The notes: generated from the letters alone by a model not told the origin. Positions 4,953-58,272 are shown, numbered from the stretch's first letter. The stretch: 64,000 nucleotides of DNA from an uncultured Solirubrobacterales bacterium (GCA_963788975.1 CAWBIJ010000003.1:71156-135155); one strand, 5' to 3'. A program made the numbers and translations.

Positions 4953-5897
4953 CTACCCGCTCGCGAGGCGCTCTAGACGCCGCAACCCGCGATTCACCCT
5001 CAGCACCGCCGGTTCGGCGAGCGGCTCGCCGCGTCGCACGGCAGCGACCAGACCCGCTCCGGCGAGCAGATCGGTGACGTAGTGCTCGCCCAGGTAGACG
5101 AGCGCGAAGCCCAACGTCAGCGCGTAGCTCCAGCCAGCCGCCCCCTCGGCGCGTCCCGCTTCGGAAAGCACGATTGCCGCGATCACCGAGGTCGCGAAGT
5201 GCAGCGAGGGCATCGCCGCCCAAGGATTACCTCCGAGCGCCCCGTACATCGCCGGCCACGCCTTTCCCCATGTCGGTTCACCGACCTCGACCATGATCCG
5301 CCGCACCTCTTCCCCGGTCAGGCCCTGCTCGGATGCCCACCACGGTGGCGCCGTCGGCACGGCGAAGTAGCCGACGCAACCGAGGTCGAAGACGGCAGCG
5401 AGCTGGCGAGCCGCGCGGGGAAAGCGCTCGGGGTGGCGGAGGAGGATCCAGACGAGAGCGGCATAGGGCTCGAGGAACCAAAGCCAGTGCACCCAGGTGA
5501 GGAGGCGGTCGACGCCGTTGACCCGGCCGAGTCGGGCGAGGGCGCGCTGCAGACGGGCGTTGGGCAGCCGCCCGAGGCCGATCGCACGGTCGATTGCGAT
5601 CGGGTAGCGGCTGCGCAGGCGCCGGCGCAGGCGCTCCGGATCGTCGTAGGGAAGCTCGTGCACCATCGTGAAGGCCCACATCTGCATCGCGTAGAGGACG
5701 ACGTCGCGCTTGTGGGAGCGCGGGCGCAGAACGGCGACCGCCAACGGCCCGCTCGCGCAGGCTGCAACCGTGACCGGAGCGGGAATGCGCAGGCGACGCC
5801 TCAGCAGCGGCACGGCCACCGCGGCGACCAGCGCGCCCGCCGCCCCGGCGCGCACCACCGTGCGTAGCGCCGGAGATGGCCGGGAGCGCCTGCGCAT
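4953..5897 (-). CDS. PAP2-superfamily membrane phosphatase/phosphotransferase-like protein
   Basis: The C-terminal motifs MPSLHFATSV and YLGEHYVTDLLAG match PAP2 motifs C2/C3 (SxH ... HxxxD). I chose the start at ATG 5895-5897 because the ATG at 5996 lies inside an intergenic repeat. The start is uncertain. Confidence 0.6.
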   Translation of the reverse strand: MRRRSRPSPALRTVVRAGAAGALVAAVAVPLLRRRLRIPAPVTVAACASGPLAVAVLRPRSHKRDVVLYAMQMWAFTMVHELPYDDPERLRRRLRSRYPIAIDRAIGLGRLPNARLQRALARLGRVNGVDRLLTWVHWLWFLEPYAALVWILLRHPERFPRAARQLAAVFDLGCVGYFAVPTAPPWWASEQGLTGEEVRRIMVEVGEPTWGKAWPAMYGALGGNPWAAMPSLHFATSVIAAIVLSEAGRAEGAAGWSYALTLGFALVYLGEHYVTDLLAGAGLVAAVRRGEPLAEPAVLRVNRGLRRLERLASG

Positions 5898-5993
5898 AAG
5901 GTCGGCGAGTATAGGTCCGCGGCAGCGGGCGGGCGGGAGCGGGGCGCCGCCCCTCCTGATTAGAATGGCCGCGCTTTGGAGCCGAGGACTCAT

Positions 5994-6139
5994 CACGAAA
6001 TCCCCGCGTGTGCGGCTGGCGAGCGCCGGACCAAGCGGGGCAAGGACGCAGGGAGGCCCAATAGCAGCGCTATTTGGCCGACCGAGGACGCCGCACCGCG
6101 CCGGTCCGCCGCCGCCAGACGTGCGCGAGGGGTTTCGTG
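5994..6139. repeat. palindromic intergenic repeat, long form (copy A)
   Basis: The termini CACGAAATCCCC...GGGGTTTCGTG are inverted. About 95 nt of core (GGCTGGCGAGCGCCGGACCAAGCGGGGCAAGGACGCAGGGAGGCC.AATAGCA.CGCTATTTGGCCGACCGAGGACGCCGCACCGCGC) are near-identical to 47956-48052. Confidence 0.8.
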
Positions 6140-6844
6140 ATGAGTCCCAGCTCCCCTGGCACCGACCAGATCCAGACCCTGTTCGGCATCGGCTTCGTCG
6201 CTTTTGCGATCGTCGCCGTCGTCGTCAATGGCGCGCTGATCTACGCGCTGCGTCGCCGCCGCGCCGGTCGCGGCGCCCAGGCCGCCGATCCCGAGCCCCG
6301 ATCGGGGCGTCACCCCCAGCTCCGTGTCGGCGCTGCGCTCGGTGTCTTCGCGACGGCGATCCTCGTGCTCAGCCTGGTCTTCACCGAGAAGGCGCGCGAG
6401 GCTCCCGCGACCGGACCCGCCGGTCTCCAGGCCAAAGGTTCGGAGCCGCTGAGGATCACGGCGACCGGTCAGCAGTGGCTGTGGCGCTACGAGTACCCCA
6501 ACGGAGCCTTCTCCTATTACAAGCTGGTGGTGCCGGTCGACACCGCGATCAAGCTCGAGCTCGGCTCCACCGACGTGATCCACACCTGGAACGTGCCCAG
6601 CCTTGCCGGCAAGCGTGACGCCGTGCCGGGCAGGGTCCACGAGGTCTCCTTCCTAGCCGACGAGGAGGGCAGCTACACGGGCCGGGCCGCGACCCTCTCC
6701 GGCGCCGCCTTTGCGGCGATGGGCACCGAAGTCGAGGCCGTCTCTCCCGAGGAGTACGAGAGCTACGTGAAACAGCTCGACGCCGACATCCAGGCCGCCC
6801 AGGACGAGGTCGTCAGCCAAATCGAAAGCGGGGAGACGCCATGA
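6140..6844 (+). CDS. cytochrome oxidase subunit II-like protein lacking the CuA ligands
   Basis: Internal ATG of ORF 6074-6844. It has two N-terminal TM helices and a cupredoxin domain (QQWLWRYEYP, DVIHTWNVPSLAGKRDAVPG). The CuA loop reads GRAATLSGAAFAAM instead of CxExCGxxHxxM. Confidence 0.75.
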   Translation: MSPSSPGTDQIQTLFGIGFVAFAIVAVVVNGALIYALRRRRAGRGAQAADPEPRSGRHPQLRVGAALGVFATAILVLSLVFTEKAREAPATGPAGLQAKGSEPLRITATGQQWLWRYEYPNGAFSYYKLVVPVDTAIKLELGSTDVIHTWNVPSLAGKRDAVPGRVHEVSFLADEEGSYTGRAATLSGAAFAAMGTEVEAVSPEEYESYVKQLDADIQAAQDEVVSQIESGETP

Positions 6845-8529
6845 GCGCGAGCGCAAAGCGCCCGGAGATCATCGTCGACGGATTCCCGCGCAGCCGCTCG
6901 CGCTGGGCTGAGCTGGCGACCAGTGGTGATCACAAGGACATCGGCCGGATCCTGATCGGCGGCGCGCTCGGGTTCCTCTTCATCGCCCTGATCGAGCTGC
7001 TGCTGATGCGGCTGCAGCTGGCGATTCCGGGGAACACATTCCTCTCTCCGGAGACCTTCAACCGGATGCTCTCGCTCTACGGCACGACCGCGATCTTCCT
7101 CTTCGCGCTCCCGCTCGTCTTCGGCCTCTTCTACTACCTGGCGCCGCTGCAGATTGGCGCCCGCGGGACCGCCCTCCCCCGCCTCGGTCAGCTCGGCCTC
7201 TGGCTCTGGGTCGCCGGAGCCACCGTCCTCTACGCGGGCTTCCTCTTCACCCCCTCCGAGGCGGGCATCAACCCCCTGGCGCCGCTCTCCGAGCTGGCCT
7301 TCCTCTCCAACAACGGGGTCGACGCGTGGGCGGCCGCCACCGGCCTGGCGACGCTCGGCTTCGTCCTGCTGGCGATCGACCTGACCACGACGCTGCGCAG
7401 GATGCGGGCGCCGGGCATGGCCTGGAGGCGACTGCCGGTCTTCGCCTGGGCCACGGCGATCGGCTCCTGGCTGATGCTCGTGATCGGCCCGGTGCTGCTG
7501 GCTGCGATCACGATGCTGCTGATCGATCGCAACTTCGACGGAATCTTCTTCGCCGACGGCTCCGGAGGGGCGCCACTGCTCTGGCAGCACCTGAGCTGGA
7601 TCTTCTTCACCGGCACCTACATGCTGGTCATGATCGCCGCCTTCGGCGCGATCTGCGAGATCGTCCCGTCGCTCGTCGGCCGGCCGCTCGAGGGCCGCTC
7701 CACGGTGATCGGCTCGCTCGTCACGATCGCCGTGATCGGCACTCTGGCCTGGATCCAGAACATGTTCACGGCGCCGATCGGGATCGCCTGGATGTACTTC
7801 GCGATGACGATGGCCCTGGCCCTGATCGTCCCCTTCGGGCTGATCGTCTACAACCTGATCGCGACGATCGCTGGCGGCACCGTTCGCATGCGAGCGCCGC
7901 TGCTCTTCGCTGCCGGCGCGGTCTCGGCGATCTCGGTCGGCCTCGCGGCGGAGATCTCACACTCAATGGTCGGCCTCGCCTGGAAACTGAAGAACACGAC
8001 CGATGCCACCGGGGCGACGCATTTCGCCCTGATCGGCGGCGCCGTCTTCGGCGGTTTCGCCGCCCTCCACTACTGGTTCCCGAAGATGACCGGCCGCACG
8101 ATGGGCGAGAGCCTGGCGCGGATCTCCTTCTGGACGATGATCCTCGGTGCCATCCTCGCCTTCGTCCCACTCCTCTTCTCCGGTACCTACGAGGGGCAGG
8201 TGATCGACGCCTACAAGTTCTTCGGCGACGAAAGCATCAGCGGCTACAACCTGGTCGCCTCGATCGGCGCCCTCATGCTCGCCGCCGGCATCGTGATGAC
8301 GCTCGTCAACGCGATCCTCAGCCGTGAGGGCGGGCCCGAGGCCGGGCACGACCCCTGGGGCGGAGACTCGCTCGAGTGGTTTGCGCTCTCGCCCCCTGAG
8401 CCCCACAATTTCGACGTGCTTCCCGACGTGCGCAGCGAGCACCCGATGCGGGACATCCGCACGGCGATCGCCCACCGCACCGCGCGCAAGCCCGAGCGGC
8501 CAGCGCCCGAGTCACAGCCGGTAGCCTGA
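6841..8529 (+). CDS. heme-copper oxidase subunit I-like protein lacking heme a and CuB histidines
   Basis: GDHKDIG start motif and 12-TM pattern. It is colinear with the canonical CtaD in this window, but the ligand positions read SLYGTTAIF, FFTGTYMLV, AWIQNMF and THFALIGG. An ATGA overlap links it to the upstream subunit II-like ORF. Confidence 0.8.
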   Translation: MSASAKRPEIIVDGFPRSRSRWAELATSGDHKDIGRILIGGALGFLFIALIELLLMRLQLAIPGNTFLSPETFNRMLSLYGTTAIFLFALPLVFGLFYYLAPLQIGARGTALPRLGQLGLWLWVAGATVLYAGFLFTPSEAGINPLAPLSELAFLSNNGVDAWAAATGLATLGFVLLAIDLTTTLRRMRAPGMAWRRLPVFAWATAIGSWLMLVIGPVLLAAITMLLIDRNFDGIFFADGSGGAPLLWQHLSWIFFTGTYMLVMIAAFGAICEIVPSLVGRPLEGRSTVIGSLVTIAVIGTLAWIQNMFTAPIGIAWMYFAMTMALALIVPFGLIVYNLIATIAGGTVRMRAPLLFAAGAVSAISVGLAAEISHSMVGLAWKLKNTTDATGATHFALIGGAVFGGFAALHYWFPKMTGRTMGESLARISFWTMILGAILAFVPLLFSGTYEGQVIDAYKFFGDESISGYNLVASIGALMLAAGIVMTLVNAILSREGGPEAGHDPWGGDSLEWFALSPPEPHNFDVLPDVRSEHPMRDIRTAIAHRTARKPERPAPESQPVA

Positions 8530-51109: not shown

Positions 51110-51508
51110 TCACGACGCGGCGGCCTCCCCGGCGCGTCCGTCCCCACCGCGCGCCAGGTCGCGCAGCACCGAGCGCATGTCGAAGAAGAGCAACGAGGCG
51201 AGAGCGAAGCGGTCGGTAACGGCGATCGCGGTAAGGCCGTCGTGGCGCAGGGCGAAGACCTCGCCCTGCTCGGTCGCGACGTGGATCTGCTGGACCGGCT
51301 CATCGCCAGCCCGGTCGGCCACCTCGAGCAGCGCCCGGGCGTCCTCGCTCCAGCGATCCGCATGGTCGCTCGCCGCCAGCGCCAACCCGGTCGAGTCGAG
51401 GATCGCGCCGCCGCGCAGGTCGGGGGACATCTCGGTCAGGTAAGCGAGCGCGCCCTTGGCAGCGCCGCCTGAGACCGCGTCGGTGGTCGCGTCGGGCATC
51501 TCGGCCAA
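51110..51508 (-). CDS. roadblock/LC7 (MglB-like) domain protein
   Basis: ALAYLTEMSPDLRGGAILDSTGLALAAS...VFALRHDGLTAIAVTDRFALASLLFFDMRSVL. Confidence 0.75.
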   Translation of the reverse strand: MAEMPDATTDAVSGGAAKGALAYLTEMSPDLRGGAILDSTGLALAASDHADRWSEDARALLEVADRAGDEPVQQIHVATEQGEVFALRHDGLTAIAVTDRFALASLLFFDMRSVLRDLARGGDGRAGEAAAS

Positions 51509-51824
51509 AATACCGACCGTGTCCCTGGCTCGAGCTTCCTGGATGGTCGTCGTCGCCGTCTGCGCGATCGCAGTCGTCCTTTTCGCGATCAGTGGCTACA
51601 CCGGCTACTCGATCACCGTCGGCGCCGTCGGCCTCGCCGCCGCGGTGAACCTTCTGCCTAGCCCTTAGTCCCGTCGCGGGGCCTCCAGCCCGGCTGTACA
51701 AAGTGGACAAGAAAGAAAACTCCTGTCTGCCATTCACGCTTCAAGATGTTTATGCAATCCGTCGATGCGCCCCGACTGGCGGGCCAGATCCCGCTTTCTC
51801 GCAATTTGACAAGGGGGATCGAAG

Positions 51825-52295
51825 ATGAGTTGGACGACAGGGAAGCGCATGCTTGTGGCGCTCGGCTGCGTAGCCGCGCTGACGGCCGCGGGCGCAGCCA
51901 TCGCCTATTTCACGTCGAGCGGATCGGGCACCGGAACTGCCGCGGTTGGCTCGAGCTCGGCCGTGACGCTTCACGCCACGATCTCCTCCGACCTCTACCC
52001 CGGCTCCTCCTCGCCGGTATCGCTCACCGTCGACAACCCGTCCTCGGGCTCGCAGCGCGTGGGAACGGTCACCTTGGCGAGCATCTCCGTCGATGTCGGG
52101 CATTCGGCCTGCAGCACCACGATCTCGGGTGGGAACCCAGACTTCACCATGCCCGCGGTCAACGTGAACAAAGTCTTCCCATCTGGGAACGGCCAGAGCG
52201 TGACGCCGAGCGGCACCCTGACGATGAACGAAACCGGCGTCAACCAGGACGCCTGCCAGGGCGCGACCCTGACGCTGAACCTGACCAACAACTGA
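51825..52295 (+). CDS. TasA/camelysin-like exported protein with SipW-type signal peptide
   Basis: TM helix then AIAYFTSSGSGTG, and a C-terminal NETGVNQDACQGATLTLNLT. Compare TasA: GGGTWAAFND ... QNKYQGNSIKLQFSF. Confidence 0.6.
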   Translation: MSWTTGKRMLVALGCVAALTAAGAAIAYFTSSGSGTGTAAVGSSSAVTLHATISSDLYPGSSSPVSLTVDNPSSGSQRVGTVTLASISVDVGHSACSTTISGGNPDFTMPAVNVNKVFPSGNGQSVTPSGTLTMNETGVNQDACQGATLTLNLTNN

Positions 52296-52311
52296 TCCGC
52301 TCCCGTGAAGG

Positions 52312-53088
52312 GTGGTACCCGTAGAGAGAGGCGGCCGCGCTGGAAGCAGCGCGATCCCCGGAGCGCTGATAGCGACGCTCGGTGTGGCCGCCTGCCTCGG
52401 CGTCGTCGCCTACGCGGCTGCGTCGCACGGAGCCGCCGGGACCCGTACCGAGCGCCGGCCAGCCTCCCTGCGGCTCCCGACGCCGACGATCACCAATCAC
52501 CCCAACAAGCTGGCCACATCGACTCGCGCCAGGTTCGGTTTCGCCGTGCGCGGGCGCAACCCGCGCTTCCAGTGCCGCCTCGACCGGCGCGGGTGGCGAG
52601 CCTGTCGGGCGCCGATCGTCTTCGCGGGGCTCGCGCCCGGCAATCACGTGTTCTCCGTGCGAGCGCTAGACCGGCGGCACCGCCGTCGGCACGGGAGGGC
52701 AGCTCGTTTCCGCTGGAGCCTGCTCGCGCCGAAGGACTTCTCGATCGTGCCGCAGCTGGCCGGCCTCGGCTCGCTCTACCCCGGAGCGCCGCCGGTGGCG
52801 CTGCCGCTGACGATCTCCAACCCCAACCCGGTGCCGATCTACGTCACCAGCCTCAGGGTCGCGGCGACCACCAATCCCCCGGGATGCGCGAGCGCCGCGA
52901 ATCTCGATCTGACCCACTCCAGCGTGTCGAGCGCGGCGCCGCTCAGAGTGCCCGCCGGGGGATCGGTGGGATTGCCGGCAGAGGGCGCCTCGGCACCCGC
53001 GATCCAGCTGCGTGACCTGCCCGTCAACCAGGACGCCTGCCAGCGTGCCCAGTTCCCCCTCGCCTTCTTCGGGGAGGCAAGGGGATGA
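52312..53088 (+). CDS. exported protein: N-terminal anchor, Ig-like domain, TasA-like C-terminal domain
   Basis: GVVAYAAAS after the TM helix. An Ig-like segment (RFGFAVRGRNPRFQCRLDRRGWRACRAPIVFAGLAPGNHVFSVRA). The C-terminal domain is paralogous to the previous ORF (LYPGAPPVALPLTISNPN...VNQDACQRAQFPLAFF). Confidence 0.55.
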   Translation: MVPVERGGRAGSSAIPGALIATLGVAACLGVVAYAAASHGAAGTRTERRPASLRLPTPTITNHPNKLATSTRARFGFAVRGRNPRFQCRLDRRGWRACRAPIVFAGLAPGNHVFSVRALDRRHRRRHGRAARFRWSLLAPKDFSIVPQLAGLGSLYPGAPPVALPLTISNPNPVPIYVTSLRVAATTNPPGCASAANLDLTHSSVSSAAPLRVPAGGSVGLPAEGASAPAIQLRDLPVNQDACQRAQFPLAFFGEARG

Positions 53089-54944
53089 AGTCGGTGCGGA
53101 CCGGAATCGCCGGGACCGCCCTGGTCCTGATCATGGTCGGGACTCTTTCCAGCGCGGCCTTCGCCTACTTCTCGACCAAAGGCGCGGGCAACGCAACCGC
53201 GGGCGTCTCGAAACTGTCCACGCTGACGACCGTCACCGCGACACCCGCTGTCGGCGGCACGGTGGCGTTGAGCTGGAGCGCGGTGGTCCCCCCCGGGCCG
53301 GGCACCGTCACCTACGCCGTCTCGCGCAACGGGGGGGCGCCCAGCGGCGCCTGTCCGAGCGCCTCTGCCCGGACTCCGGTCACCAGCTGCACCGACAGCG
53401 GTCTCGACGTCGGCACCTACGACTACGTCGTCACGGCGTACTGGCGCTCCTGGAGCGCCGGCAGCTCCACCGCCACGGCGAAAGTCACGGTCGGGCAGGC
53501 GACGCACCTGGACCTCAAAGCCGCGTCCACGACCCCGACGGCGGGAGCCACGAACAACCTGACGATCACCGCCCAGGACGCGAACGACAACACCGTCACC
53601 ACCTACACCGGCTCTCGCAGCCTCACCTTCTCGGGCGCCTCGGCCAGCCCCAACGGAACGAACCCCACCGTGAGCAACAGCTCCGGAACGGCGATCGCCT
53701 TCGGTTCGGCGACCACGATCAGCTTCAGCTTGGGGGTCGCCGAAGTCTCCTCCAAAAACGGGGTGATGAGGCTCTACAAGAGCGGGGCGACGAGCGTCAA
53801 AGTCACCGACGGCTCGATCTCCAGCTCGCCGGATCTCGCCCTCACCGTCGCGCTCGAGGCGTCCTCGAAAATCTCGCTCGCCGCTGCCTCGGCGACGCCC
53901 ACGGCGGGGGTCGCGAACGACCTGACCATCACGGTTTCCGACACCTACGGCAACCCGCTGCCGACGTATACGGGACCGCGCAACCTGACCTTTACCGGCG
54001 CCTCGCCCAGCGCTTGGGGCAATACACCTACTGTCAGCGACAGCTCCGGGGTCGACGTCCCGCTCGGCTCGACAACCGCGATCGACTTCGACGCCGGGGT
54101 GGCAAAAGTCGCCGGCGCCGCCAACGGCGTGTTGAAACTCTACAAAAGCGAGAGCACCAGCATCAAAGTGAGCGACGGCTCGCTCAGCGCCTCGACCTCC
54201 GTGACCGTCGCTGCGGCGGCAGCGACGAGCCTCTCGCTCGCCGCTGCCTCGACGACGCCCACCGCGGGAGCCTCCAACAACCTGACCACCACCGCGTTCG
54301 ACCCCTACGGGAACACCGCGACCTCCTACACCGGCTCCCGCAACCTCACCTTCTCGGGCTCCTCGGCGAGCCCCAACGGAACCCTGCCGACCGTGACCAG
54401 CAGCGGCGGCACCGCCATCGCCTTCGGTGCGGTAACTGCGATCAACTTCAACTCAGGCGTCGCCAAAGTCTCTTCGTCGAACAACGGGGTGATGAAACTC
54501 AATCGCGCCGGTGCGGCGAGTGTCGTAGTCAGCGACGGCACCATCTCCTCGGCCCCTCTGTCCGTCACCGTCAGCCCGGGGCCCCCGTCAAGGCTGGCCT
54601 TCTCCGGCGTCGGAATCAGCGGCGGCGTTCTCAGCTCGATCTGCTCCTTCACCTGCTCGGTGACTGGGCTGGGCAACAGCGGCACGATCACTGCGAAAGT
54701 CAGCGTCACCGACAGCCTCGCCAATACCGTCAACGCGGTGGGCACAGGCCAGAGCGTCAAAGTCACCTCGACCGGCGGCGCCATCGTCGGCAGCCCCCTC
54801 ACGATTAACAGCTCCGGCCCTGCCGAATCCGCGACCCAGTTCACCTTCACCGCCAAATCGAAAGGCAGCTACACCGAGACGATCACCGCCGCGACCTCAG
54901 CCGGCACCACCTACACCAGCGCGACGCTGACAGCGAGCCGGTAG
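53085..54944 (+). CDS. large exported repeat protein with SipW-type signal peptide and Ig-like (Big/invasin-like) repeats
   Basis: ATGA overlap with the previous ORF. SSAAFAYFSTKGAGNA follows the TM helix. It then has an Fn3-like segment and four repeats of roughly 100 aa (L.AAS.TPTAG..N.LTIT..D.YGN....YTGSR.LTFSG.S.SPNG..PTVS..SG...). Confidence 0.7.
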   Translation: MKSVRTGIAGTALVLIMVGTLSSAAFAYFSTKGAGNATAGVSKLSTLTTVTATPAVGGTVALSWSAVVPPGPGTVTYAVSRNGGAPSGACPSASARTPVTSCTDSGLDVGTYDYVVTAYWRSWSAGSSTATAKVTVGQATHLDLKAASTTPTAGATNNLTITAQDANDNTVTTYTGSRSLTFSGASASPNGTNPTVSNSSGTAIAFGSATTISFSLGVAEVSSKNGVMRLYKSGATSVKVTDGSISSSPDLALTVALEASSKISLAAASATPTAGVANDLTITVSDTYGNPLPTYTGPRNLTFTGASPSAWGNTPTVSDSSGVDVPLGSTTAIDFDAGVAKVAGAANGVLKLYKSESTSIKVSDGSLSASTSVTVAAAAATSLSLAAASTTPTAGASNNLTTTAFDPYGNTATSYTGSRNLTFSGSSASPNGTLPTVTSSGGTAIAFGAVTAINFNSGVAKVSSSNNGVMKLNRAGAASVVVSDGTISSAPLSVTVSPGPPSRLAFSGVGISGGVLSSICSFTCSVTGLGNSGTITAKVSVTDSLANTVNAVGTGQSVKVTSTGGAIVGSPLTINSSGPAESATQFTFTAKSKGSYTETITAATSAGTTYTSATLTASR

Positions 54945-54979: not shown

Positions 54980-56530
54980 TCAGCTGGAACCGACCACTCC
55001 AGCGACACCACCGGCCCGTCCTAGCTGTGAGAGCGGTTCGTCGTCCCCCGGGTTGTGCGGCGGCACCCAGCTTGGACAGGTATGCCGCGGGGGGAAGGCC
55101 GGGGCTTCGTCGCAGAGGACGAAGGTGCCGGTCGTGATCCATTCGTCGACGCAGTACGCCTCTTCGGTTTGGCCCTGAGTCGGGTAATAGCATTCGTGGT
55201 AGTAGTTCGCCCCACTCGACTTTTCGCAGTGGAAGTACTGCCGCAGGCCAGCGCACTCGGCCGAGCTCGGCAGATGGCGTTCGGTGACGAGCATGTAGTC
55301 GGTCACCTTCACCGTGTACAGGGGTCCCATGAAGTCGTTCAGGTACACCTTGGCCGAGCAGTGGTCCAGCGAGCCGAAGGGGCGCTGCGTCGCTTCCCCG
55401 GCCCAGTAAGCGCCGCCCTCGGTCTTGACGGTAGTTCCGACCATCTCGGGTCCGGACACGCCGTCGAACGGGACGCCGTACCCGCTCATTGTCGTCTTCC
55501 ACCGGAAGTCGGTTCCCTCGGCTTCGAATTTGCCATATTTGAGGACGCTGGAGCGATTGCGTATGTGAAAGCGGCATTCGGAGCTGTTCGGTGGGTTGCC
55601 GATGCTGGGATCGATGAAGAGGCTGACGCCGCGAAAGCGCCGGGGCGGCGGAAGGCGCGGCGCCAGGCCGTCAGCGAGCCAGCTCCCGCCCTGTTTGAGC
55701 CGGCGGGCGTCGAGGCGCAAGACCGAGCCGTCGAGGCGCGGGTTGCTCAGCTCGAGAGCGACCGAGGCGCCACGGCCTGAGCGCGCAAGCACGTCGAGGG
55801 CGCCGTTGGGCGAAGAGTCGGAGAACAGGCTGCGCCACCAACGTCCGAAGAAGGACGGCGAGCCGACGTTGTAGCTGAGGTCGACCGGGTGATCGGAGAA
55901 GGCGACCACGTGGTCGCGAACCCCCCTCAAGGTCAGCTCGTACCCGCCTTTCCTGCCCCGATCGAGGCGACCCGACTCCGCTCCGGTGACGAAGAGGAGG
56001 TCCACCCCGACCCGCTTGCGCGGAGCGGATTCGGGTCGCCCACCGCCGCGGGGGCGGGTATCGAAGAAGAGACTGGCCGATCCGAAGCGACGCGGCGGAG
56101 TTCGATCGACGCGGTGGGCGTAGTGATCGAGATCGCTGCTGTGAGTGGCCGGGACCCGAGCGGCCAGCCGCAGAGTCCCGCCTTTCAGGCGAGGGTGGCT
56201 GACGGTGAGGACCAGGGCATCCCGGCGGTTGTCGGAGTCGCGTAGGTCGAGCGCCACCGACGGAGGCATCGGGTTCGCTCGCCGCCAGAACGCCCCAAAG
56301 AAGCGACGGGTCGCCATGCTGAACGCGTCGCGGCGCGGCCGGTCCGAGAAGCCGACGACCCGATGCGGCAGCCCGGACAGGGTGAGCGAGTAACGGCCCT
56401 CCCCCTTCGGCACCAACCTGCCTCCCTCGGCCTGAACCGCGAAGAGCACGTCCGCGCTGGACGAAGCGCGTCCGCCGTCAGCCGCAGCGGGGGGGCCCGC
56501 AGCTAGAAAGCCCACCGTAAGCAAGACCAT
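54980..56530 (-). CDS. secreted protein: two tandem domains of about 135 aa plus Cys-rich C-terminal domain
   Basis: The repeats are ADVLFAVQAEGGRL...HRVVGFSDRP...RRFGSASLFFD and VDLLFVTGAESGRL...DHVVAFSDHP...RRFRGVSLFID. The C-terminal 200 aa carry about 9 Cys. The start is uncertain because the hydrophobic leader continues upstream of the ATG. Confidence 0.6.
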   Translation of the reverse strand: MVLLTVGFLAAGPPAAADGGRASSSADVLFAVQAEGGRLVPKGEGRYSLTLSGLPHRVVGFSDRPRRDAFSMATRRFFGAFWRRANPMPPSVALDLRDSDNRRDALVLTVSHPRLKGGTLRLAARVPATHSSDLDHYAHRVDRTPPRRFGSASLFFDTRPRGGGRPESAPRKRVGVDLLFVTGAESGRLDRGRKGGYELTLRGVRDHVVAFSDHPVDLSYNVGSPSFFGRWWRSLFSDSSPNGALDVLARSGRGASVALELSNPRLDGSVLRLDARRLKQGGSWLADGLAPRLPPPRRFRGVSLFIDPSIGNPPNSSECRFHIRNRSSVLKYGKFEAEGTDFRWKTTMSGYGVPFDGVSGPEMVGTTVKTEGGAYWAGEATQRPFGSLDHCSAKVYLNDFMGPLYTVKVTDYMLVTERHLPSSAECAGLRQYFHCEKSSGANYYHECYYPTQGQTEEAYCVDEWITTGTFVLCDEAPAFPPRHTCPSWVPPHNPGDDEPLSQLGRAGGVAGVVGSS

Positions 56531-56645: not shown

Positions 56646-57470
56646 TCAACGCCGGTAACCCACGGCCATCAGCCCACCGTTACTGGAGAGCTGGCCGACT
56701 TCTCTGCGCAACGCGTTAGGGTCGAAGCCGCTCCGCACCTCGAGGCGCCTGGGCAGGGCGTAGAGGGTGAAGACGTAGGTCTCGCTCAAGCCTTGCGGCG
56801 GGCAGACCGTGTAGCCGACCTTGCCGAAGCTGTTGCGGCCCATGACGGCGCCCTTGGGGAGCCGACCTGCCGGTATGCCTGTCAGGTCCGGGTCGATGCC
56901 CGCAACGGCCCAGCTGTAGGACAGTTCGCCTTCGACCGGCCTCAAGCTCATCGCGAAGAGCGCCAGTTCGGCGGTGTCGGGGGGAATTCCCTGCCAGGCG
57001 AGCTCGGGCCAGATGTCCTCACCGTCGCAGGTGTTGGCGGCGGCGAGCATGGGCGGGCCGCCGGTGGACGCGGGCTGAAGCGTCGGGCTTTCGAGGCGCA
57101 TGCTCTGCGTCGTAGCTTCGGCGCGCTGCCTGGGGGTGATCCCCTTCTCCCGTTCGCCGGAGGGAACCACGACTTCCGGACTGGGCTCGCCCTGAGTCTC
57201 CGGTCCCTGCCTGCCCTGGCTCGAAGCGGCCTTTGACCCCGGGCCCGGGACTGGGTTCGGGCCCGGGGTCGCAGGCTCGTTCGCAGGGCTTTCCGTCTCT
57301 GCCTGTTCGCCCTGCGAAGTCGGCGCGCTCGCCGTCTGGTCGTCGGAGGAGCCGTCTCCACAGCCGGACAGGGCGAGCGTCGCCGCGGCGGCGAGTGCCA
57401 GGATCACCCTGGCACTCGCCTGCCGGATCTTGGGGCTCAGGACACGCTCAGCGCGGCTTCTCGGTTCCAT
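56646..57470 (-). CDS. lipoprotein with divergent PEBP (YbhB/YbcL-like) domain
   Basis: Lipobox LALSGCG and a low-complexity linker. The C-terminal SYSWAVAGIDPDLTGIPAG...GRNSFGKVGYTVCPPQGLSETYVFTLYALP fits the PEBP G.n..g...Y.GP.PP.G..H.Y.F.lyAL pattern with substitutions. Confidence 0.55.
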   Translation of the reverse strand: MEPRSRAERVLSPKIRQASARVILALAAAATLALSGCGDGSSDDQTASAPTSQGEQAETESPANEPATPGPNPVPGPGSKAASSQGRQGPETQGEPSPEVVVPSGEREKGITPRQRAEATTQSMRLESPTLQPASTGGPPMLAAANTCDGEDIWPELAWQGIPPDTAELALFAMSLRPVEGELSYSWAVAGIDPDLTGIPAGRLPKGAVMGRNSFGKVGYTVCPPQGLSETYVFTLYALPRRLEVRSGFDPNALRREVGQLSSNGGLMAVGYRR

Positions 57471-58057
57471 CCAAACCCTTCGGAGGGGAAGAACCCGTTC
57501 CATTCGACCGGTTCACCGAACGCTTCCAGGGTCGTGCCCGTCGCTTTGAAGCTCGACGGGCTGAACGTCGCGCTTTCGGTCGCGTTGCTGAGCAGGCCGC
57601 CGGCGGAGCCGGTGACGTTGACCCACCATCCCCACACCGGGCAGAACCAGCCGCCGTAGAGGATCCAGACGTCAACGCCTTTGACCGTCAGGTAGTTGCT
57701 GCTGCTGACCGTGGACAGTTTGGCGGGCCAGGGGAACGATTCGGCTTCGATCGCTTCCACCGTGCAGGTCGTGTTCGTGTAGCAGTTGAACAGGGGCAGG
57801 TCGGTGACGTTTCCTTCGCCCGTCCCCCCGGTGTTCCAGATCGATACCTGGTAGAGGAAGTTGTCGCAGGTGGTCGTCATCCCCCACATGCTGAGGCCGC
57901 TTTTTTCGGCCCCACCGAGGAGCGTTTCCGTGCCTTTCAGTTCTGCTCCGCCGAACCTCCAGGCAGGAGCCGCGCTCGCGCCGGCCGCTAAGACGCCGCA
58001 GAGCGCCAAGGCCGCGAGCAGGCCCGCCAGGAGGGCTCTTGCTCTCTTCGTATTCAT
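57437..58057 (-). CDS. secreted Trp/Cys-rich hypothetical protein
   Basis: Internal ATG (58055-58057, preceded by AAGGAGAGAG) of ORF 57437-58177. The signal peptide is MNTKRARALLAGLLAALALCGVLAAGASA. Confidence 0.6.
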   Translation of the reverse strand: MNTKRARALLAGLLAALALCGVLAAGASAAPAWRFGGAELKGTETLLGGAEKSGLSMWGMTTTCDNFLYQVSIWNTGGTGEGNVTDLPLFNCYTNTTCTVEAIEAESFPWPAKLSTVSSSNYLTVKGVDVWILYGGWFCPVWGWWVNVTGSAGGLLSNATESATFSPSSFKATGTTLEAFGEPVEWNGFFPSEGFGWNREAALSVS

Positions 58058-58272
58058 GATCTCTCTCCTTGCAGTGCTTGTTAGCAACGCAGACTGGGTA
58101 GGGCGCTCTGCGCTTCTCTCCCTTGCCGTCCCTCGCTCAGTCGACCGCAGCCGATCAGTTGAGCACGGTTCGCTCATTAGGAACGCCCGCCAATCTTCTA
58201 CCGCACCGGTCAGACAAGAGCAAGTAATCGCGGTCTATGTCGTCTAACTAGCCAGTCAGAGCTTGAGGAGAA

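Follow-up and report, generated by a model that had tools for sequence, protein, structure and literature searches.

The window analysed here is a stretch of 64,000 nucleotides (nt) from an uncultured Solirubrobacterales bacterium (GCA_963788975.1, CAWBIJ010000003.1:71156-135155), and the subject of this work is a cassette of three open reading frames (ORFs) on its plus strand, at positions 51825-54944. ORF1 (51825-52295) encodes a protein of 156 amino acids (aa), ORF2 (52312-53088) a protein of 258 aa, and ORF3 (53085-54944) a protein of 619 aa; the last two genes overlap by the four nucleotides ATGA (53085-53088). An initial annotation had described them as a cluster of TasA/camelysin-like proteins with SipW-type signal peptides. 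The observation of the three-gene cluster is confirmed, as are the termini that had been quoted for its products; the interpretation given to it is supported in part. The N-terminal regions read ...AGAAIA/YFTSSG in ORF1, ...LGVVA/YAAAS in ORF2, and ...SSAAFA/YFSTKG in ORF3, where the slash marks the predicted cleavage site. ORF1 ends in VNQDACQGATLTLNLTNN and ORF2 in VNQDACQRAQFPLAFFGEARG, and the last residues of the three proteins are ...LNLTNN, ...FFGEARG, and ...ATLTASR, respectively. The GC content at third codon positions is 0.85-0.88 in ORF1-ORF3 against 0.86 in the adjacent tldD gene, with 0.64-0.66 in the alternative frames, and the cassette forms a plus-strand island flanked on both sides by minus-strand genes.

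ORF1 begins with a signal peptide of 27 residues (51825-51905) composed of MSWTTGKR, a hydrophobic core, and A-I-A, after which cleavage is predicted. In an alignment of 84 ORF1 relatives, the N-terminal part of the family consensus consists of KKR, the hydrophobic core, and A-(Y/F)-A / Y-(F/W)-T-x-x-G-S-G-T-G-x-A-x-V-G, and the body reads L-x-P-G ... V-x-F-T-x-x-N ... C ... F-x-M ... N-Q-D-A-C-(K/Q)-G-A-T-L-T-L. Alanine occupies position -3 in 81 and position -1 in 82 of the 84 sequences. The residues following the predicted cleavage site, YFTSSGSGTGTAAVGSSSAV (aa 28-47, 51906-51965), form an N-terminal arm, which is proposed to be a donor strand on the basis of its conservation, the structural model, and its presence in ORF3 as well. 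It is the best conserved stretch of the family, with Y or F at position +1 of the mature protein, F or W at +2 (82/84), and G at +6, +8, and +10. The body (aa 48-156 and the stop codon, 51966-52295) is folded by AlphaFold2 into a confident six-strand beta-sandwich with NQDACQGATLTLNL as its C-terminal strand; its predicted local distance difference test (pLDDT) values are 94-98, and that of the whole monomer model is 87.6. The arm has no secondary structure in this model (pLDDT 56-76). The most conserved part of ORF1 is, therefore, a segment that is yet predicted to lie outside the protein's own fold.

The predicted mature ORF1 is 129 aa in length and acidic (isoelectric point, pI, 4.4). Since Cys96 is present in 83 and Cys144 in all 84 of the aligned relatives, a disulfide bond between them is likely. 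A Cys-Gln thioester (Q141-x-x-C144) was considered and rejected as the principal interpretation, the near-invariance of Cys96 making the disulfide simpler. Gln141, which belongs to the N-Q-D-A-C stretch and precedes Cys144 by three residues (residues 141-144, 52245-52256), is itself invariant (84/84), and the disulfide does not account for this.

The two partner proteins resemble ORF1 in complementary parts. The arm, which in ORF1 is rich in Gly, Ser, and Thr (YFTxxGSGTGxAxVG), is common to ORF1 and ORF3 and absent from ORF2, and the N-terminus A-x-A-Y-F-(T/S)-x-x-G is found in only these two proteins of the entire 2.48-Mb genome. When profiles are compared using HHalign, the ORF3 family aligns to positions 1-50 of ORF1 alone, that is, to its signal peptide, arm, and first strand (probability 96.4%, E 1.2e-9). 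The N-termini of the two proteins are 41% identical, and the arm motif is kept in 53 of 55 relatives. The ORF2 family profile, in contrast, aligns to the ORF1 body alone (positions 57-153; 97.7%, E 1.4e-12). This agrees with the paralogy between ORF1 and the C-terminal half of ORF2 noticed in the initial annotation, which BLASTP also detects (30% identity over 103 residues, E 1e-4). Such a set, with arm and body combined in ORF1, the body alone in ORF2, and the arm alone in ORF3, is what would be required for a polar strand-swapped fibre whose two ends differ.

The signal peptide of ORF3 (aa 1-27) and its arm YFSTKGAGNATAGVSKLS (aa 28-45), together at 53085-53219, are the proposed donor-only end of this protein. 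They are followed by an Fn3-like domain (aa 46-136, 53220-53492), which is recognised by its pattern only (..ALSWSAV...YAVSR...GTYDYVVTAY..) and has no match in Pfam. Next come immunoglobulin-like (Ig-like) repeats at 53493-54566. Instead of the four repeats of about 100 aa counted in the initial annotation, there are three clear ones of about 120 aa (aa 137-252, 253-374, and 375-494; 54-68% pairwise identity) and a divergent C-terminal domain (aa 495-619 and the stop codon, 54567-54944). The relatives of ORF3 fall into length classes of about 620, 865, and 985 aa, corresponding to between three and six repeats.

ORF2 starts with a signal peptide ending in V-V-A/Y-A-A (aa 1-33, 52312-52410). 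A linker and a very basic Ig-like middle domain (aa 34-141, 52411-52734; pI 12) follow, and Pfam and NCBIfam scans returned no family match for this domain. The ORF1-like body detected by BLASTP and HHalign (aa 142-258 and the stop codon, 52735-53088) completes the protein; it is armless and is proposed to be acceptor-only. The mature protein has a pI of 11.8, with a median of 11.06 across 55 relatives, and it owes this extreme basicity to the middle domain. A-V-A-Y-A-A or a close variant is kept in 43 of the 55 relatives, which suggests that ORF2 is also cleaved and not membrane-anchored. At 52305-52330, comparison with three close relatives shows that 2 nt are deleted here (AGAGA--GAGG), eight codons on from where ORF2 usually starts. 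The usual start is GTG at 52305 (MKGG.RRER...), and the frame is restored by GTG at 52312 (MVPVERGGRAG...), which shifts the start by 7 nt; the deletion may be either a real start shift or an assembly error.

Neither an LPXTG motif nor a C-terminal membrane segment is present in ORF3. Sortase-assembled Gram-positive pili were rejected, as ORF1-ORF3 lack this combination at their C-termini. Type IV and Tad pilins were rejected too: no prepilin-peptidase site (G|F/M-T-L-x-E or G|xxxxEY) is present ahead of the hydrophobic helix, the conserved motif comes after the hydrophobic segment, and position +5 is not occupied by Glu. Export by the Tat pathway was rejected from the sequence, in which there is no twin arginine.

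The cassette is a conserved unit and not a chance cluster. Among uncultured Solirubrobacterales it is conserved in more than 70 species, and looser conservation extends to other Actinomycetota. The ORF1 family matches 1621 representative clusters (E ≤ 1e-3), and a search of the clustered protein collection found 1321 ORF1 homologues, mostly 156 aa long and 76-95% identical. In species-representative genomes, 80 loci were detected; uncultured Solirubrobacterales whose genomes measure 2.5-2.9 Mb account for nearly all of them, and a few distant loci belong to Gaiellaceae, Acidimicrobiia, and Streptosporangiaceae. The ORF1 family is present in 15 of 151 sampled genomes of the class. The three-gene order could be parsed in 60 of 71 close loci, and the 4-nt overlap of ORF2 and ORF3 is seen in nearly all of them. 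When the ORFs of 15 distant loci were clustered, the only family common to all was that of the cassette's own genes, which encode one or two small subunits together with a protein like ORF2 and a large one like ORF3. The ORF2-like proteins of distant loci have plain signal peptides, and the ORF3-like proteins always carry the arm motif.

The region preceding ORF1 was analysed using an alignment of 72 related upstream regions. The pattern T(C/A/T)AAG-N16-(C/T)CGATG occurs in 68 of them at a median distance of 55 nt from the start codon; the sequence of the spacer varies, and the family consensus of the -10 element is GCCGATG. In the window, the predicted promoter consists of TCAAG (-35), a 16-nt spacer, and TCGATGC (-10) at 51741-51768 on the plus strand. 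The sigma-28 consensus is TAAA-N15-GCCGATAA, and the conserved cassette promoter is, judging by its sequence, close to this FliA/WhiG type; no sigma-70-like site was found upstream of ORF1. The alignment contains another conserved block, the operator-like inverted repeat CTGTAC-AAAG-TGGACAAGA (51694-51712, plus strand), which is probably the site of a regulator. Its family consensus is TTGTAC-N5-GTACAAGA followed by CTGTCTGCC, about 46 nt upstream of the -35 element, and a regular expression matched the repeat in 37 of the 72 loci, at a fixed distance from the -35 element. The putative ribosome-binding site of ORF1, AAGGGGGA (51811-51818, plus strand), is kept as ACAAGGGGGA in relatives.

A matching sigma factor is encoded outside the window, on contig C4 (54262-54939), and scores 285.6 bits to the FliA/WhiG model against a cut-off of 189.6. 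The genome has no flagellin and no FlhA, so this sigma factor must control something other than flagella. A genome-wide scan for other sigma-28-like sites gave 26 matches compared with 7-11 in shuffled sequences, from which no clear regulon emerged, and the promoter motif is present in only 4 of 13 distant cassettes.

We propose that the cassette most likely encodes a minimal self-assembling extracellular fibre of the TasA-superfamily type, an interpretation held with fair confidence, in which polymerisation is what we infer from the sequences. Transcription would start from the sigma-28/WhiG-type promoter with its putative upstream operator. The Sec pathway would export all three proteins, and LepB, the ordinary type I signal peptidase (SPase I), would cut them after A-x-A, leaving an N-terminal Tyr. 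ORF1 would be the repeating subunit, the arm of which inserts into the body of a neighbouring subunit (donor-strand complementation), head to tail, and the resulting chain would be polar and built without a chaperone, ATPase, or sortase. As ORF3 has the arm and lacks the body, it could only donate a strand; as ORF2 has the body and lacks the arm, it could only accept one, and the two would therefore occupy opposite ends of the fibre. ORF3 may serve at its end as a cap with an adhesin stalk or as a TapA-like nucleator, and ORF2 at the other end may hold the fibre on the anionic cell wall by means of its basic domain.

In the simplest scheme, a wall-bound ORF2 base would receive the first arm, growth would take place at the free groove, and ORF3 would cap the fibre and present its Ig-like stalk. 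The data equally allow reversed roles, in which ORF2 would be the distal cap and ORF3 the nucleator, the role that TapA plays when it starts the TasA fibre via a donor strand (PMC10151520). A small major subunit with two special partners, as envisaged in the initial annotation, fits the complementary homologies; its assignment of ORF3 to the tip and ORF2 to the anchor goes beyond what the sequence can tell.

The proposed link to the TasA/camelysin family turned out to be weak but consistent across relatives of the cassette proteins, whereas the three cassette proteins themselves stay below every curated threshold. PF12389 (Peptidase_M73) is the commonest weak Pfam match among the 84 relatives (16/84, best E 1.3e-4), followed by CARDB with 4. 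The weak NCBIfam matches are TIGR04088 in 5, TIGR04089 in 2, and TIGR04090 in 6 of them (best E for TIGR04090 0.0018). PF12389-positive proteins from other Actinomycetota were aligned and compared with the ORF1 family alignment using HHalign, which gave a probability of 95.5% (E 1.3e-8). For a more homogeneous PF12389 subset, the probability was 96.7% (E 3.8e-10) over 143 collinear columns, including the C-terminal 'N..QG' strand; the reversed-sequence control gave 0.2%. TasA and CalY share with ORF1 the hydrophobic core, an aromatic residue at -2, Ala at -1, an aromatic residue at +2, and T/S/N at +3, then the 'PG....v.f.v.N.G' strand and the C-terminal 'N..QG.s.t.f.f' strand in the same order. 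A search of PDB sequences with the family profile returned only matches of E ≥ 0.037; AbpX was among the best (E 0.14, over the PG...N.G strand region), which is not significant. On balance, homology of the ORF1 family to the TasA superfamily is probable, resting mainly on the N-terminal half, and is not established; membership of the cassette in PF12389 is unproven.

A number of results weigh against this relationship and the fibre proposed from it. Scans of the three cassette proteins and four neighbours against Pfam and NCBIfam brought the cassette no match above a curated threshold; none of its proteins matches PF12389, TIGR04088, or TIGR04089 even at E ≤ 1, and for ORF1-ORF3 the Pfam search gave no PF12389 match even at E ≤ 10. 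The HHalign score is contributed largely by the signal peptide and the N-terminal arm: it rises steadily as more of the signal region is included, and from the mature N-terminus on, P is 0.006 (local) and 0.0005 (global), with the three motifs still in the same order. The Asp at mature position 4, typical of the arms of TasA, CalY, and AbpX, is missing. Fold searches with two models led to generic Ig-like sandwiches. With the ORF1 model, the top Foldseek match is the TasA fibre 8aur_A (E 0.057, template modelling score 0.32), which is not significant; with the model of the distant relative P0222, the top 50 contain no TasA and are led by hydin/ASH, transglutaminase barrels, and RbmA. P0222 is also a natural tandem of two ORF1-like bodies, and in its model the arm-like linker has pLDDT <50 and is not a strand, although the alignment behind the model covered the first body only. 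Finally, in three related genomes (L096, L113, and L133), ORF1 is directly followed by an ORF3 homologue without an intervening ORF2.

The P0222 gene (locus L153, 3593-4603) is a solitary metagenomic gene, alone in its locus, for which no close relatives were found. It encodes a membrane segment, a Pro/Thr-rich linker, and the two tandem bodies, joined by ...FTYS-NGG-TGTATVGG..., in which a tight turn leads directly into an arm-like strand. P0222 may be a naturally self-complemented form.

The same results can be read as pointing to proteins that do not polymerise. ORF1-ORF3 would then be Ig-like proteins that are secreted or associated with the wall, or would make up a surface complex of fixed 1:1:1 composition, with a private signal-peptide/N-terminal tag serving, for example, sorting or quality control; their TasA-like N-termini would be convergent, and the body would be an ordinary ASH/CARDB-like sandwich. 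The dependence of the HHalign score on the signal region is compatible with this, the cassette encodes no assembly factor, and fold matches to the body are unspecific, with sandwiches of the hydin/ASH, CARDB, arrestin, and pMMO-B types scoring as well as TasA. We nevertheless consider this explanation unlikely. Independent proteins would hardly show such strict complementarity, with the arm alone in ORF3, the body alone in ORF2, and both in ORF1. Conservation is higher in the arm than in the fold behind it, and the arm follows the predicted cleavage site; since its motif is confined to ORF1 and ORF3 within the genome, it is no general sorting tag. PF12389 is, moreover, by far the commonest weak match among relatives.

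A less probable explanation is that the N-terminal hydrophobic segments are uncleaved signal anchors, and that the cassette forms not a released fibre but a membrane-tethered, WhiG-controlled envelope structure, for example one connected with cell division or with a resting stage. In favour of this, the hydrophobic stretches span 16-20 residues, and in P0222 and other ORF2-like relatives Pro/Thr-rich linkers come after a long membrane segment. Developmental genes are under WhiG control in Streptomyces, and the present genome has WhiG and no flagella. However, the nearly invariant Ala residues at -3 and -1 of ORF1 and the A-x-A-Y kept even in ORF2 would be needless for a mere anchor. The same position is the cleavage site in homologous TasA-type proteins (PMC9674648).

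To our knowledge, every described TasA-superfamily system (TasA, AbpX, AbpA, and Tafi) has a dedicated SipW-type peptidase. The initial annotation had found no signal peptidase near the cassette, and this holds for the whole genome, from which SipW is demonstrably absent. The SipW-type model TIGR02228 has only a 26-bit match in the 92.9%-complete genome. This match is the ordinary LepB, which adjoins rplS, trmD, and rnhB, is the only S26 gene of the genome, and is likewise alone in matching the model of bacterial SPase I, TIGR02227 (143 bits). In five cassette-bearing relatives with closed single chromosomes, the sole type I signal peptidase is likewise LepB, with only a match of about 25 bits to TIGR02228. 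The label SipW-type is not justified for the N-termini, which are ordinary A-x-A sites such as standard SPase I would cut; by the refuting condition set in the initial annotation, this tells against the peptidase part of its claim. LepB is the obvious candidate for the enzyme that would cleave ORF1-ORF3. A SipW-type match above the cut-off is absent from 9 of the 14 other family-bearing genomes of the class sample, and all six same-order family-bearing genomes (96-100% complete) have no such match. The combination of SPase I and its partner DUF5305 is absent from both the window and the genome.

In the class sample, a SipW-type gene lies within a few kb of the cassette in a single genome, G141. 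The locus concerned (L033 on contig C10, 4790-8649, minus strand) encodes a fusion of such a peptidase with DUF5305 (5682-7334); it is some 2 kb away from the cassette, with a CAP-domain gene in between. The peptidase locus has small secreted cargo genes of its own, with the N-terminus AFAYTNTISG. It looks like a separate locus of the AbpX/Tafi type, for which the arrangement of a peptidase with DUF5305 has been described (bioRxiv 10.64898/2026.01.04.697558; PMC12337348). That the cassette still needs a dedicated processing enzyme, either outside the S26 family or distant and missed, is very improbable: the incompleteness of the genome and the proximity of the G141 fusion would favour it, but the five closed relatives and the six same-order genomes have no SipW-type gene, no other gene family is common to all the compared cassette loci, and the G141 enzyme has its own cargo with a different N-terminus.

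By analogy, the cassette is best filed as working like a donor-strand fibre of the TasA/Tafi type. The tapA-sipW-tasA operon of Bacillus subtilis is likewise a three-gene operon for a secreted matrix or fibre protein, and the B. cereus protein CalY (PF12389; TIGR04088 signal) belongs to the same comparison. The differences are considerable. The predicted mature ORF1 has 129 aa against about 230 aa in TasA, and it has a conserved Cys pair; neither the operon nor the genome contains SipW. The partners in the cassette are 'half subunits' with the arm only or the body only, unlike those of tapA-sipW-tasA, and the predicted promoter is of the sigma-28/WhiG type, whereas the B. subtilis operon is under SinR/Spo0A control. 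The most frequent weak NCBIfam match among relatives, below the threshold, corresponds to BsaA of Clostridium perfringens (TIGR04090), a SipW-dependent polymerising matrix protein that forms isopeptide bonds (PMC11580942); the ORF1 family has no conserved Lys.

The layout of the cassette resembles that of the haloarchaeal Tafi system, which comprises the TafA/TafE pilins, the TafC tip, the TafF anchor, the TafD peptidase, and TafG (DUF5305). Tafi combines a strand-donating pilin, a multi-domain tip, and a protein with an N-terminal hydrophobic helix and a pilin-like jelly-roll domain (PMC12337348), and remote homology has led to its inclusion in the TasA superfamily (bioRxiv 10.64898/2026.01.04.697558). 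The pilin/tip/anchor triad has its counterpart in ORF1/ORF3/ORF2, which also follow the Tafi/AbpX-type layout of a pilin, a tip, and a helix-plus-pilin-domain protein encoded together; this is a layout analogy that sets the cassette beside Tafi by architecture alone. Tafi is archaeal and has a Tat signal, whereas the cassette is bacterial, has a Sec-type signal without twin arginine, and has no TafD/TafG pair.

Archaeal AbpX, the AbpA bundling pili, and Sulfolobus threads are chaperone-free donor-strand filaments of small beta-sandwich subunits, which ORF1 resembles in its predicted fold and proposed assembly. ORF1 also shares with AbpX-type filaments the aromatic residue at position 2 of the (in ORF1 putative) donor strand, a residue that the AbpX study calls critical (bioRxiv 10.64898/2026.01.04.697558). 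In contrast to the cassette, AbpX loci contain a dedicated SPase I, often with DUF5305, and AbpX binds Ca2+ via the Asp at position 4 that the ORF1 family lacks. The chaperone-usher pili (Fim/Pap) follow a similar polar-fibre logic, in which subunits both donate and accept a strand and the ends do only one of the two. FimH is an end subunit without a donor arm, and PapH terminates the fibre. The analogy is one of mechanism only: the cassette has no chaperone, usher, or outer membrane, and the sequences are unrelated.

As for the neighbouring genes, tldD/pmbA and a small gene lie upstream of the cassette, and a convergent gene for a 516-aa secreted protein lies downstream. The 132-aa protein encoded upstream (51110-51508, minus strand) has no Pfam match at E ≤ 1. 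Two secreted proteins encoded downstream on the minus strand, of 516 aa (54980-56530) and 246 aa (57437-58177), have no family match, and a PEBP-family lipoprotein (56646-57503) is encoded between them.

We know of no surface structure described for uncultured Solirubrobacterales, which are abundant in soil. We tentatively suggest that the cassette represents a previously undescribed minimal branch of the TasA superfamily, somewhat less securely than the fibre itself: a donor-strand fibre without a dedicated peptidase, chaperone, or anchor enzyme, its ends set by two 'half subunits', in a WhiG regulon of non-flagellated soil Thermoleophilia. If this is true, it would be the simplest of all genetically defined polar fibre systems that are known from bacteria. 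A large, well conserved family served by LepB would show that the assembly mechanism does not inherently involve a SipW-type peptidase. With one partner reduced to the arm and the other to the body, the cassette would provide a clean, testable model for how a chaperone-free strand-swapped fibre is started, capped, and held, and structural studies would find an appealing minimal scaffold in the 129-aa subunit. For the organism itself, the apparent connection with a WhiG-type sigma factor, given that the genome lacks flagella, hints at a programme of development or attachment.

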